Shown: positions 25,300 to 29,430 of the stretch, one piece after another
How positions within the stretch are numbered: position 1 is the first letter of the stretch
How the letters are laid out: each line of letters begins with the position of its first letter
Assembly: GCF_046105845.1 (NCBI RefSeq)
Contig: NZ_CP151004.1
Direction: 5' to 3' (one strand)
DNA from: Escherichia coli
GTDB lineage: Bacteria > Pseudomonadota > Gammaproteobacteria > Enterobacterales > Enterobacteriaceae
Length of the DNA: 64,000 bases
The notes under the pieces: generated by a model
Databases searched by the model: none
Told to the model about the DNA's origin: nothing
The model's input: the letters and a program-made list of their open reading frames with translations, nothing else
Made by a program: the position numbers and the translations under genes

Positions 25300-25320
25300 T
25301 TCGTTTTCCACTCTAAAACA

Positions 25321-25353
25321 AAGCCAATGGTAGATATTCCGCCATTGGCTTTA
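25321..25353 (+). terminator. putative terminator hairpin after topB
   Basis: AAGCCAATGG-N12-CCATTGGCTT inverted repeat; weak T run. Confidence 0.4.
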
Positions 25354-25665
25354 TTGGTTATACTCGTCATGCTTCAAGTTGCATGTGCTGCGTCTGCGGG
25401 TTATTCGGCCCATCCATGGGCCTCACCCCTTACGGGGCCGCTGAAAGCAGCGTTCAAATCCGCTCCATGCGGATTTGTCGTTCAGCCCAGTCACTTACTT
25501 ATGTAAGCTCCTCGGGATTCACTTACTTGCTGCCTTCCTACAAATCGAATTATTTAGAGTATATGATATAAGTACCCACAGCTAAAATTATAAACGAAAT
25601 ATCTTTATATTCACGTAAGTTATGTTATGGATTGCATCATTATAAATTATTTTTAAACGCAGGGA

Positions 25666-25684
25666 TTGTGAACATTATTCACAA
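25666..25684. promoter_or_regulatory. perfect 7-5-7 palindrome TTGTGAAcattaTTCACAA in the AT-rich promoter region of the Hsp70-like gene; candidate operator
   Basis: read directly from sequence; about 60 bp upstream of the ATG at 25744. Confidence 0.4.
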
Positions 25685-25743
25685 AATGAATATATATAAC
25701 TGCTCTATAAAATGATCAGTTCATTTATTTGAAGAGGATAATT

Positions 25744-27444
25744 ATGATTATCGGTATTGACCTCGGGACGACTAACAGTCTGGCAGCGGTATGGCGAAAT
25801 GGACAAAGTGAACTGATCCCCAATGCGTTAGGCAAGTTTTTAACACCCAGCGTAGTTTGTGTTGACGAAAATGGTATGGTTTTGACAGGGGAGGCAGCTC
25901 GTGACCTGCAACTCATCAAACCACAAAATTGTGCAGCCAATTTTAAACGCATGATGGGCACATCAAAGACGTTTAAATTGGGCGGACGTGAATTTCGGGC
26001 AGAGGAACTCTCATCGCTGATACTGCGTCAGCTAAAAGAAGATGCTGAAAGCTATTTAGGTGAAGAGATAACAGAAGCAGTAATTAGCGTACCTGCTTAT
26101 TTTGGTGATGTGCAACGCAAAGCAACAAAATTGGCAGCTTCAATGGCAGGCTTAAACGTCGAGCGTTTAATTAACGAACCAACCGCCGCTGCACTGGCGT
26201 ATGGTTTGCATAATAAAGATGATGAACATCAATTTTTGGTATTCGATTTAGGTGGTGGTACGTTTGATATCTCCATACTGGAGTTGTTTGACAATATTAT
26301 GGAAGTACGAGCCAGTGCCGGGGATAACTTTTTAGGTGGTGAAGATATTGTCGATATCCTGATCGATGCATATTGCTCAAGGCGGGATCTTCCTGAAAAT
26401 ATTGAATGGCGTGAACCGACACTCCAGCGCAATTTACGCATCGAGGCTGAGCGTGTCAAACGCGTGCTTAGTATGCGCGACGAAGCTACTTTCAGTATGG
26501 AGATTGAAGGAAGGCGATATTACTGGCATCTGACCACAGAAAAATTTGAATTTTTATTACAGACCTTTTTCGAGCGAATACGTATGCCACTGGAACGGGC
26601 AATTCGCGATGCCAAAATTAATATTAGCCAATTAGACCAGGTTGTTCTTGTGGGTGGCACTACACGTATGCCACTGATTCGCAAACTTGTGACACGACTA
26701 TTTGGTCGTATACCGGCAATGCATTTAAACCCGGATGAAGTCATTGCCCAGGGCGCGGCTATTCAGGCAGCACTTAAAGCGCGGCACAGGGAATTACGAG
26801 ATATTGTAGTGACCGATGTTTGCCCTTATACGCTGGGCGTTGATACCTCTAAATCGCTGGGGCATACCCGCGAATCAGGCTATTTTGCACCCGTTATTGA
26901 GCGTAACCGAAGTATTCCTTGTAGTCGCGTTCGTGCCTTTTACACAGCACATGATCAACAAACAGAGGTTAATTTTAAAATCTACCAGGGTGAAAGCAGG
27001 ATGGTGGCTGATAATATTTTCCTTGCGGAGTTGTCAGTGAATGTTCCGCCAAAACCGGCCGGTGATGTGCGTATTGATGTTCGTTTTACGTACGACATTA
27101 ACGGTATTCTTGATGTCGATATCAGCGTGCCACTGACAGGGGCTAAAAATAGTCTGGTTATTGAACAGAATCCAGGGGCATTAACGAAAGAACAAATACA
27201 GCAGTCGTTGTCCAAATTAAGCCTGTTAAAAATTCACCCACGCGATGAACAGATAAACCAGGCCTTTATTGCCCGTCTTGATAATCTCTATCAACTCACC
27301 CTGGCGGAAACACGAGACTGGATAAGCAATTGCTCTCGTCAATTCAGTTATCTACTCGAGAAGCAGGATCCTGATCAACTAGCTGATTTTCGGGCTAAAG
27401 TTGAACCTACATTAGACTCTCTGGAATGGGAGCGTCTGCAATGA
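25744..27444 (+). CDS. Hsp70-family ATPase, HscC-like specialised chaperone (accessory)
   Basis: 566 aa from ATG at 25744 with GAAGAGGA RBS (track ORF begins at an upstream TTG); IGIDLGTTNS, DLGGGTFD and VGGTTRMP ATPase motifs; strong resemblance to remembered HscC; lower GC than flanks. Confidence 0.8.
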   Translation: MIIGIDLGTTNSLAAVWRNGQSELIPNALGKFLTPSVVCVDENGMVLTGEAARDLQLIKPQNCAANFKRMMGTSKTFKLGGREFRAEELSSLILRQLKEDAESYLGEEITEAVISVPAYFGDVQRKATKLAASMAGLNVERLINEPTAAALAYGLHNKDDEHQFLVFDLGGGTFDISILELFDNIMEVRASAGDNFLGGEDIVDILIDAYCSRRDLPENIEWREPTLQRNLRIEAERVKRVLSMRDEATFSMEIEGRRYYWHLTTEKFEFLLQTFFERIRMPLERAIRDAKINISQLDQVVLVGGTTRMPLIRKLVTRLFGRIPAMHLNPDEVIAQGAAIQAALKARHRELRDIVVTDVCPYTLGVDTSKSLGHTRESGYFAPVIERNRSIPCSRVRAFYTAHDQQTEVNFKIYQGESRMVADNIFLAELSVNVPPKPAGDVRIDVRFTYDINGILDVDISVPLTGAKNSLVIEQNPGALTKEQIQQSLSKLSLLKIHPRDEQINQAFIARLDNLYQLTLAETRDWISNCSRQFSYLLEKQDPDQLADFRAKVEPTLDSLEWERLQ

Positions 27445-29375
27445 ACTGCTGGGAAATATTAGGTTTACAACCTGGCGCGGAAGAACGAGATATTAAGCGT
27501 CGTTATGCGCAACTGGTAAAAAATTGCCGCCCGGAAGATTCTCCCGAAGCCTGGCAACAATTGCACGATGCTTATGAACAGGCTTTACGTTATGACGACG
27601 AAGATCAGTGGCAAGAAGAGGAAGAAGAGCAACCGATCAATATATCCAGGGGTATTGTTCATCCTCGTCCTGTGATGACATTTCGCGCACTCAACACCTT
27701 TTCTGGTCATCCACTTCCTGATGTCACTATTAAATCAGAGGAGGAATTCACCTGGCAAGCCGTGCTGGATATGCTCTGTGAGGAGAATGAAGCAACCCCC
27801 GAACACGCCCCCATGCAACTTGCTAAGGCGTTATCTTTCCTTGAGAAAAAAGATCTCAGCTCACGAATGAGCTTTGAAGAAGCGTTATTACTGCATCTTC
27901 ATCGGGTATTCCGGCCATTATTAACTCTCGCTGCTGCACAAACGTTCAGATGGCATTTAGTTGCAGGCAGTCGTCAACCCGTAATCCAGACAGAAATTAA
28001 CGAAAGTTGTCTTCTTTATTATCGCATCGAAAAAGAAATTACCACTTTCTTTGCCAGTAACTTGTCTCCACTGGAAGAAATGGAAAACGGGAAGGAAATG
28101 GCTACGATTTATCAATCATTAAAGGATAATGAAGAGAGCCTGAAATGGTTTGATATCGCAGTATTAAATAAAATTGCTGAATTTGAACTGTCAGACAACT
28201 ATATGGCATTGTTAATAGAGCGTTTATCATATTCCTGGCGAAAAGAAAAAATGATTCGCAAGTGGAAATTAACAGAACGCTTCAATAATTTAGCAATGCA
28301 ACATCATAGTGGATATAAAAAGTTACTAAACGCCATAAAATTAAAAGGTCTTTTTTATTATCCATCTTTTGTATTCCAGTCCTGCTTACATGCTGCAGAG
28401 CAAGACTATTCACTTGCCTGGTATTCTCTTGGCAAAATGTATTACGAAGGTGATGAGGTTTCACAGGATCTAAAATTAGCCTTTAATTGGTTTAGCCGTG
28501 CCGCGCAGCATAATGTTATCGATGCTCAGTATGCGCTGGGCATCATGTATAGCGATGGAAGGGGCACGGATAAGAATATTAGCGAGGCACGAAAATGGTT
28601 ATTACTTGCTGCCCAAAATGGCAACGCATCTGCGCAATATGAGCTTGCCCGTATCTCACGCTTTGCTGTTGAGCCATTACGAAATTATGAAGAAGCATTA
28701 CAGTGGTATTTATCTGCCGCCACACAAGGACATGAACTTGCCCAGTATGAATTGGGACAAATGTATATACAAGGGATTGGCGTGGAGCGCGATGAGGTAC
28801 AGGCCCATCGTTGGTTTTTGCAATCGGCGGAACAGGACCATTCAGACGCACAATATCATACTGCCAGCTTGTATAGTGAAAGTGAGAGTATTCCACAAAA
28901 CCAGGAAAAAGCGCAGTACTGGTTTACCAGAGCTGCAAAAAATGGTTCCGGGGATGCCATGTATGAATTGGGTAAATATTATTTAACCAACAATGATGAT
29001 CCTGAAAATAATGCTGAGGCTATTCAATGGCTTACTGGTGCAGCGCAGCGTGGGAAAATAAAGGCGATATTTTTGTTAGCCGAAATGTATCTCTACGGTA
29101 CAAAAGATGTCGCAAAAGATGAAAATCATGCGCTGCACTGGTACGAAAAAGCGGCGCGTTTAGGGGCAACCGAAGCGCAACACCAGACTGCGGCAATGTA
29201 TGCTCAGGGGACAGGCACTAAAATTGATAATAAACAAGCATGGATGTGGCTAACAATTGCCGGAAATAACAACCCTTGGATTGAAAAAGATGCGTTGCGA
29301 TGCTTAATGTCGGAACAGGATATTCAGGATGCAGAACAAACGGCTGCAAATTGCAAACGTCTGCTAAGGATTTAA
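27441..29375 (+). CDS. J-domain-like / Sel1-repeat protein, DjlB/DjlC-like putative co-chaperone (accessory)
   Basis: 644 aa from the ATG overlapping the upstream stop (ATGA); alternative ATG at 27426; N-terminal J-like helix pattern (WEILGL...RRYAQLVK...) with RPE at the HPD position; about seven Sel1-like repeats C-terminally. Confidence 0.75.
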   Translation: MNCWEILGLQPGAEERDIKRRYAQLVKNCRPEDSPEAWQQLHDAYEQALRYDDEDQWQEEEEEQPINISRGIVHPRPVMTFRALNTFSGHPLPDVTIKSEEEFTWQAVLDMLCEENEATPEHAPMQLAKALSFLEKKDLSSRMSFEEALLLHLHRVFRPLLTLAAAQTFRWHLVAGSRQPVIQTEINESCLLYYRIEKEITTFFASNLSPLEEMENGKEMATIYQSLKDNEESLKWFDIAVLNKIAEFELSDNYMALLIERLSYSWRKEKMIRKWKLTERFNNLAMQHHSGYKKLLNAIKLKGLFYYPSFVFQSCLHAAEQDYSLAWYSLGKMYYEGDEVSQDLKLAFNWFSRAAQHNVIDAQYALGIMYSDGRGTDKNISEARKWLLLAAQNGNASAQYELARISRFAVEPLRNYEEALQWYLSAATQGHELAQYELGQMYIQGIGVERDEVQAHRWFLQSAEQDHSDAQYHTASLYSESESIPQNQEKAQYWFTRAAKNGSGDAMYELGKYYLTNNDDPENNAEAIQWLTGAAQRGKIKAIFLLAEMYLYGTKDVAKDENHALHWYEKAARLGATEAQHQTAAMYAQGTGTKIDNKQAWMWLTIAGNNNPWIEKDALRCLMSEQDIQDAEQTAANCKRLLRI

Positions 29376-29386
29376 TTAACTCAGGG

Positions 29387-29422
29387 AAAATCGTCTGGTT
29401 ATAAGGAAAACCAGACGATTAT
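29387..29422. terminator. bidirectional rho-independent terminator between the J/Sel1 gene and gdhA
   Basis: 12-bp perfect stem AATCGTCTGGTT-ataaggaa-AACCAGACGATT with flanking A/T runs. Confidence 0.75.
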
Positions 29423-29430
29423 AATAACGA

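Follow-up and report, generated by a model that had tools for sequence, protein, structure and literature searches.

Introduction

The specialised Hsp70 system closest to the one described here is that of Escherichia coli K-12 HscC. The hscC gene lies in the cluster ybeQ-ybeR-djlB-ybeT-ybeU-djlC-hscC, and no J-domain protein (JDP) other than DjlC stimulates HscC (Kluck 2002, reviewed in PMC8215388). A 2026 review lists His-Pro-Glu (HPE) as the only tolerated replacement known for the His-Pro-Asp (HPD) motif of JDPs and refers to the other deviations as enigmatic (PMC13254874), and a large 2023 survey left non-HPD sequences out of its main data set (PMC10410713). Here we describe an HscC-type Hsp70 gene and the gene for a non-HPD J-like protein that together occupy the gap between topB and gdhA (positions 25300-29430) in a stretch of 64,000 nucleotides of E. 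coli DNA, contig NZ_CP151004.1, which is called the window below.

We consider it probable that this interval is a two-gene accessory operon for an HscC-type Hsp70 machine, that it has resided in the gap for a long time and that its alleles are swapped through topB and gdhA. Judged from the sequence, the cargo is an HscC/DjlC-like specialised Hsp70 pair, in a variant with an Arg-Pro-Glu (RPE) J-like domain and a fused array of Sel1 repeats. Three other explanations, a recent insertion, a conflict module and a decaying relic, are all weaker and are taken up below with the evidence that bears on them.

The Hsp70 and its J-like partner

The first gene (25744..27444, + strand) encodes a protein of 566 amino acids, of which residues 2-491 match the Pfam HSP70 family (1e-134). 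It is a complete Hsp70, with a nucleotide-binding and a substrate-binding domain and a length within the range of 550-580 residues, and it is neither DnaK nor HscA; it scores 445 bits against the NCBIfam DnaK model (cut-off 648) and 419 bits against the HscA model (cut-off 708). An alignment with DnaK and HscC indicates that it has all of the HscC-type indels relative to DnaK that are listed in PMC8215388. That is, it lacks DnaK residues ~76-101 and the GrpE-signature loop, it has a small deletion near D211, an 8-residue insert in loop L1,2 of the beta part of the substrate-binding domain and a deletion in lid helix B, and it ends in a short C-terminal tail. Its identity to K-12 HscC is 43.6% over the full length, and Pseudomonas Hsp70s that adjoin genes for J-like proteins with Arg-Pro-Asp (RPD) are closer to it (51-54%) than is E. 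coli's own HscC. R141 is a retained arginine equivalent to DnaK R167, which is a J-domain contact. Both window proteins are on record from E. coli (WP_409024002.1 and WP_409024003.1), and RefSeq already annotates them, in generic terms.

The second gene (27441..29375, + strand) encodes a helper protein of 644 residues. Its ATG at 27441 overlaps the stop codon of the Hsp70 gene (ATGA) and is preceded by GGGAG; all of its relatives align from the same methionine, and the RefSeq start is identical in E. coli 042. Residues 1-55 (27441..27605) have the four-helix J fold. However, R30-P31-E32 stand between helices II and III where J domains have HPD, and RPE is invariant in six family members; therefore, we refer to the domain as J-like. 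It is 41% identical to the J domain of DjlB and 35% identical to that of DjlC over 49 residues (hhalign 96.9%). The hhalign match is confined to residues 2-54, and the helper has neither the HPE nor the DjlB-type C-terminal domains nor the membrane anchor of the DjlB/DjlC family; beyond the J domain it is unrelated to these two proteins, and it is also unrelated to DUF1266.

The J-like domain is followed by an acidic linker (residues 56-100, 27606..27740) that is predicted to be disordered, the predicted local distance difference test score (pLDDT) being below 50 for residues 54-101. An all-helical middle domain comes next (residues 101-320, 27741..28400; pLDDT ~85-95), which is conserved in its first half and variable in its second; it gave no specific fold match and belongs to no Pfam family. 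The remainder of the protein (residues 321-644, 28401..29372) is its most variable part and consists of about eight tandem Sel1 repeats; Pfam Sel1 is matched eight times, with E <= 3e-4 in six cases. This array is ~34% identical to K-12 YbeQ and 31-40% identical to the arrays of paralogues and orthologues. No transmembrane segment is predicted in the helper, whose maximum hydropathy over 19 residues is 1.22.

We predict that the Hsp70 is an ATP-driven motor and that the second protein is its dedicated co-chaperone. By analogy with HscC and DjlC, the RPE domain would dock on the partner Hsp70 and trigger ATP hydrolysis, while the Sel1 solenoid would bind a specific client or partner and pass it to the Hsp70. 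Docking on the adjacent Hsp70 is the most likely role of the J-like domain, because the translational coupling of the two genes is conserved and because R141 is retained.

The wider family of J-like proteins

The RPE protein of the window has many non-canonical relatives. Among the nearest 150 J-like clusters, the signature motif is RPD in 67, HPE in 29, RPE in 27 and HPD in one. In a contig scan, which used two J-domain peptide patterns only and is not a census of the family, RPD J-like proteins of Pseudomonas were encoded directly 3' of an HscC-type Hsp70 gene at 10 of the 18 loci recovered, with no Hsp70 gene within 9 kb at the other eight (L012-L033). At the Hsp70-adjacent loci, these Pseudomonas proteins have two to five predicted C-terminal transmembrane segments. 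The order Hsp70 gene then J gene recurs at five enterobacterial loci, these 10 Pseudomonas loci, one Firmicute locus and three further loci, and HPE and HPD members from other taxa display it as well.

These patterns make the enterobacterial operon a soluble, Sel1-bearing branch of a widespread class, in which an HscC-type Hsp70 gene is followed by the gene for a non-canonical J protein. Our literature search revealed no paper that deals with the RP[DE] group or with the topB-gdhA operon.

We also compared the Hsp70s whose partners have RP[DE] with those whose partners have HP[DE], in search of residues that co-vary with the motif. Eleven columns separate the two groups, among them the equivalents of DnaK I207 and F216; they were not used because the two partner groups are separate clades, and so, the comparison is confounded.

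Three states of the topB-gdhA gap

The interval was originally noticed for its composition, and the original prediction that it is AT-richer than its flanks holds. The GC content is 0.431 over 25300-29430, as compared with 0.537 in the left flank (21000-25214), 0.524 in the right flank (29431-33600) and 0.496 in the whole window. In a sliding-window computation, the lowest-GC segment of 4,131 nucleotides (0.430) begins at 25251, and just 0.12% of all such segments are equally low. With 43 window genes placed by collinearity with E. coli 042 (98.0% identity across 48 kb), the GC content at third codon positions (GC3) is 0.388 for the Hsp70 gene and 0.380 for the helper gene, the two lowest values among the 43, and 0.42-0.65 for the rest. 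Two more stretches of lower GC (~0.45) occur in the window, at ~11000-18000, which holds the ydjL-ydjE sugar-utilisation genes (GC3 0.42-0.48), and at ~50500-55700, which is the chb chitobiose operon by collinearity with strain 042.

The same prediction named no integrase, transposase, tRNA gene or long direct repeat, and none was found: the only long open reading frames (ORFs) of the interval are those of the Hsp70 and the J-like/Sel1 protein, and it has no tRNA gene, no Rfam match and no flanking direct repeat. Thus, none of the features of a mobile genomic island, be it an integrase or transposase, a tRNA or att-type repeat, or copies on mobile replicons, applies to a segment that is nevertheless compositionally foreign.

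The gap was catalogued in 5,426 complete E. coli genomes, and it is variable, as predicted. The operon is present in 367 of them (6.8%), and so, it is not fixed as had been proposed; all of the 368 E. coli places at which it lies are chromosomal. A second state, found in 3,506 genomes, has ynjI, the gene for a DUF1266 membrane protein, as in K-12; ynjI is disrupted by IS1 or IS621 in some genomes. The third state is an empty gap with a short junction (1,532 genomes), and about 21 genomes fall outside the three main states. In the K-12 hscC cluster (locus L004, 3571-11394), djlB and djlC likewise have a DUF1266 gene immediately upstream, ybeR and ybeU respectively (the ynjI of the gap is at 2643-3683 of locus L002). 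There is no sequence link between these genes and the operon, and the parallel may be a coincidence.

All three states have the same breakpoints. Comparison with the ynjI and empty states places the left border of the variable segment at 25215-25221, about 80 nucleotides inside topB, and the right border exactly at the gdhA stop codon (29431). The left end of the segment (25215..25299, + strand) holds the last ~27 codons of topB, which encode the Lys-rich C-terminal tail of topoisomerase III, and homology to the ynjI state (L002) and the empty state (L003) ends at 25214-25220. Each state has its own version of this tail; it is entirely different among the three states and also between genera, and therefore, a recombination breakpoint lies inside a housekeeping gene. 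The original description of an interval bounded by two terminators is thus correct in that both hairpins are real, but the left edge of the variable segment is inside topB and not at the topB terminator.

No remnants of the operon were found in the ynjI or empty loci, nor the reverse. Shared breakpoints without remnants fit the pattern expected if recombination in the core genes on either side had replaced the alleles, and the earlier suggestion of exchange through the flanks is consistent with breakpoints, at the topB 3' end and the gdhA stop codon, that are common to all states. The operon, ynjI and the empty gap would then be three alleles that E. coli swaps by homologous recombination through topB and gdhA.

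The locus in other genera

A first, word-indexed search for homologues gave only truncated E. coli fragments, and an exhaustive representative search was used instead. With the Sel1-free N-terminal 326 residues of the helper as HMMER query, only five other clusters at 50% identity match over the whole length; they come from E. fergusonii, Klebsiella oxytoca, K. spallanzanii and Klebsiella sp. RHBSTW. Two more members, one from K. huaxiensis and one, a fragment, from Shigella, are present in the AlphaFold database. The loci examined were those of E. fergusonii, K. oxytoca, K. spallanzanii and a Klebsiella-like metagenome scaffold, and in each of them the Hsp70 gene and the helper gene, overlapping by 4 nucleotides as in the window, are flanked by topB and gdhA. 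Some of these loci have extra cargo on the topB side, which is a fimbrial gene in the Klebsiella-like scaffold, MFS, enolase-family and LysR genes in K. spallanzanii and the gene for a secreted protein of 266 residues in E. fergusonii. The last (L006, 5434-6234) has an N-terminal signal-like sequence and a GC content of 0.336; no Pfam hit is recorded for it, and it matches no PHROG.

The low GC content (0.43 versus 0.53 in the flanks), a GC3 of 0.38 that is the lowest in the window and the presence of the operon in only 6.8% of E. coli genomes could all suggest foreign AT-rich DNA that was inserted recently between topB and gdhA in this lineage. The synonymous divergence (dS) from E. fergusonii, which exceeds that of neighbouring core genes, would point the same way. 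However, E. fergusonii and at least three Klebsiella species have the pair at this same locus, and its GC content is shifted with the host, being 0.43-0.45 in Escherichia and 0.49-0.56 in Klebsiella, below the flanks throughout. The Hsp70 identity likewise falls with host distance, from 86% in E. fergusonii to 75-77% in Klebsiella, and the divergence of the operon from E. coli 042 resembles that of the flanks, the Sel1 region excepted. To this can be added the lack of mobility genes and repeats noted above, and tblastn of the N-terminal 321 residues of the helper gave no match in 72,556 plasmids and 50,697 phages. A recent insertion is therefore unlikely; the same locus across genera, the host-tracking GC content and the absence of plasmid and phage copies imply that the module is old here and is not a mobile element.

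In our view, the operon is an old accessory module that has long resided between topB and gdhA, both in Escherichia and in the Klebsiella oxytoca complex, and that has been retained patchily. The original prediction of an old, horizontally acquired module is thus supported as to age, since E. fergusonii and the K. oxytoca complex have the pair at the same place and its GC content follows the host. The word insertion is doubtful because the loss or replacement of an ancestral resident would explain the synteny across genera at least as well as an insertion into E. coli.

The history of the neighbourhood is not uniform. Between E. coli and E. fergusonii, dS is 0.23 for selD, 0.28 for topB, 0.19 for ynjE and 0.33 for ynjF, and it is 0.63 for the Hsp70 gene, 1.8 for the first 200 codons of the helper gene, 1.2 for gdhA and 1.3 for nudG. 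For ydjA (21637-22188), gdhA (29431-30774) and nudG (31248-31655), compared with the E. fergusonii locus L006, the values range from 1.2 to >3. Core genes with such values beside others at 0.19-0.33 imply that the neighbourhood is a mosaic of old and young alleles, and the uneven dS points to old allelic lineages or imports.

Evolution of the two proteins

The two proteins evolve very differently. Across genera, the Hsp70 is 75-86% identical and the whole helper only 38-41%. Within the helper, the J-like domain and residues 101-200 are 46-72% identical, the acidic linker 20-28% and residues 201-644 30-41%. Helper genes are sometimes duplicated: 62 E. coli genomes have a second one (J1) between the Hsp70 gene and the usual helper gene, K. 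spallanzanii has two and K. huaxiensis has three. J1 and its paralogue J2, which is the type in the window, have 94-95% identity in the first 200 residues and 31-37% in the remainder. A constant N-terminus of ~200 residues with a variable, sometimes duplicated remainder would be consistent with one motor that has exchangeable adaptors.

The ratio of nonsynonymous to synonymous divergence (dN/dS) is below 1 in every region of the operon tested, with values of 0.10-0.20 for the Hsp70, and it is 5-10 times that of the flanks. The ATGA coupling and the catalytic motifs are invariant across genera. Taken together, these patterns show an operon under purifying selection. The elevated ratio, the many truncated helper variants in E. 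coli and the absence of the operon from 93% of complete E. coli genomes could also be expected of once-functional genes that are drifting to loss, with a low GC content caused by relaxed selection. This is very unlikely, since both ORFs are full length in the window, 042, E. fergusonii and Klebsiella, dN/dS is well below 1 in most comparisons and neither the coupling nor the motifs have changed between genera.

The Sel1 region also stands out within E. coli. Relative to E. coli 042, most of the window has ~10-30 differences per kb, and positions 28001-29000 have 68. dS is raised there as well (0.15), and therefore, recombination among alleles is as likely a cause as selection.

A conserved motor joined to a fast-diverging, sensor-like repeat domain, encoded at a hotspot with presence/absence polymorphism, brings conflict or immunity modules to mind. 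The variable Sel1 array would then sense a fast-evolving foreign protein of a phage, a plasmid or a toxin system, and the Hsp70 would neutralise it or trigger a response. The extra adaptor paralogues with a constant N-terminus and a swapped C-terminus, including the three of K. huaxiensis, would fit such a role, as would the low GC content and the AT-rich promoter. However, PADLOC and PHROGs scans of the operon gave generic Hsp70 and Sel1 matches only; the PADLOC hits are not meaningful (PDC-M61B at 16 bits, in the actin-fold region, and PtuA at 25.6 bits, with no passing domain, within a Sel1 repeat). In addition, no recognisable effector such as a nuclease, pore or NADase is encoded, the neighbours are housekeeping genes and not a defence island, dN/dS does not exceed 1 and we found no literature that ties HscC-type systems to phage defence. 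We think such a role improbable. The same low probability applies to its fullest form, an immune-like surveillance machine with a constant Hsp70/J-like core and interchangeable Sel1 sensor cassettes, in which the Arg-Pro-Glu/Asp J-like domain would be a re-wired, functional activator. If it were true, non-HPD J domains would be a large working class and not dead relics. The 'NTP-dependent conflict systems' with Hsp70 (eLife 2020) were considered as a possible match and rejected; they have other architectures (GTPase/tubulin/GrpE).

Non-coding elements of the interval

Both ends of the interval have terminator-like hairpins. The first (25320..25352, + strand; inverted repeat I4) lies 3' of topB and is followed by UUUAUUGG; its RNA fold has an energy of -18.9 kcal/mol (z -4.9), and none of 200 shuffled sequences folds as well. 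The second (29389..29420, both strands) has a 12-bp stem, is common to the convergent J-like/Sel1 gene and gdhA and resembles a bidirectional terminator (z -5.7 on the + strand and -6.0 on the - strand), with UUUUCC after the - strand stem.

Between the topB hairpin and the Hsp70 gene is a long-form intergenic repeat of the enterobacterial repetitive intergenic consensus (ERIC) type (~25359..25563). Relative to the two classic ERIC primer sequences, there is one mismatch to ERIC1R at 25501-25522 (+) and there are two to ERIC2 at 25479-25500 (-), with no such match expected by chance. Copies of ~205 nucleotides with 89-93% identity occur at unrelated intergenic sites in E. coli, for example adjoining yehK. 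Two short ORFs within the repeat (25327-25506 and 25383-25571) are probably spurious.

The repeat is followed by a very AT-rich leader or promoter region (25564..25743, + strand), read as such from the sequence, with a Shine-Dalgarno GAGGA ahead of the ATG at 25744; the GC content over 25561-25743 is 0.246. Such a leader suggests that the operon promoter may be silenced. E. coli 042 also carries a DUF1266 gene, EC042_RS03510, which we take to lie in its hscC cluster. In the H-NS paper on E. coli 042, this gene is 308-fold derepressed in an hns mutant, which for the operon is an analogy only; the operon genes are not listed in the main text of that paper.

Significance and comparison with known systems

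Several points weigh against a resident, functional Hsp70 operon as we have described it. In canonical JDPs, ATPase stimulation is reported to be lost with every HPD replacement except HPE (PMC13254874). The operon has arginine in place of the HPD histidine, and therefore, its J-like domain might only bind or regulate the Hsp70 and not activate it. A promoter scan found no consensus sigma-70 site on the + strand upstream of the Hsp70 gene, and no expression data were found for either operon gene. Many helper copies in E. coli are truncated, which hints at weak selection in some lineages. With regard to history, the dS values of the Hsp70 and J-like genes relative to E. fergusonii are above those of selD, topB and ynjE, and so, vertical descent is not the whole story; furthermore, the family is seen only in Escherichia/Shigella and the K. 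oxytoca complex, and ancestral residence therefore needs many losses.

The interest of the locus rests on two features, namely its clean three-allele structure and a conserved J-like domain that lacks HPD and is fused to a variable Sel1 adaptor. For chaperone biology, the Arg-Pro-Glu/Asp J-like domain, which in both Enterobacteriaceae and Pseudomonas is conserved and translationally coupled to an HscC-type Hsp70 of its own, offers a natural test case of whether HPD deviations function, a question that was raised in PMC13254874. For genome scanning, the interval is a clear case of a segment that is compositionally foreign yet non-mobile, an old allele of a three-state gap that is exchanged through flanking core genes with a breakpoint within the 3' end of a housekeeping gene.

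Of the known systems, the ynjI allele has the same gap and the same breakpoints as the operon, but it is a single protein of 346 residues with no sequence relationship to the Hsp70/J-like pair. HscA-HscB is similar in principle, because a dedicated Hsp70 receives a specific client from a single class C J protein that is dedicated to it. However, the HPD of HscB is canonical, its client is known to be IscU, and the window Hsp70 is below the HscA cut-off. The Pseudomonas Hsp70/RPD operons have the closest Hsp70s outside the Enterobacteriaceae, the same gene order and an arginine for the HPD histidine, but the helper there ends in predicted transmembrane segments and has neither the helical domain nor the Sel1 array.

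The K-12 HscC-DjlC/DjlB system is the nearest in composition. Both have an Hsp70 with HscC-type indels and an adjacent non-HPD J protein, Sel1-repeat genes (ybeQ and ybeT) belong to the K-12 cluster, and the J-like domain of the window is most similar to those of DjlB and DjlC. The differences are nevertheless considerable. The two Hsp70s share less than half of their residues, the K-12 motif is HPE instead of RPE, and the window helper lacks the C-terminal membrane anchor and the DjlB-type C-terminal domains. The djlC and hscC genes are convergent and at another chromosomal locus, whereas the window genes are co-directional and overlapping. Finally, Sel1 repeats are encoded separately in K-12 and are fused to the J-like protein in the window, and this fusion suggests a role for the separate Sel1 genes of the uncharacterised K-12 hscC cluster.

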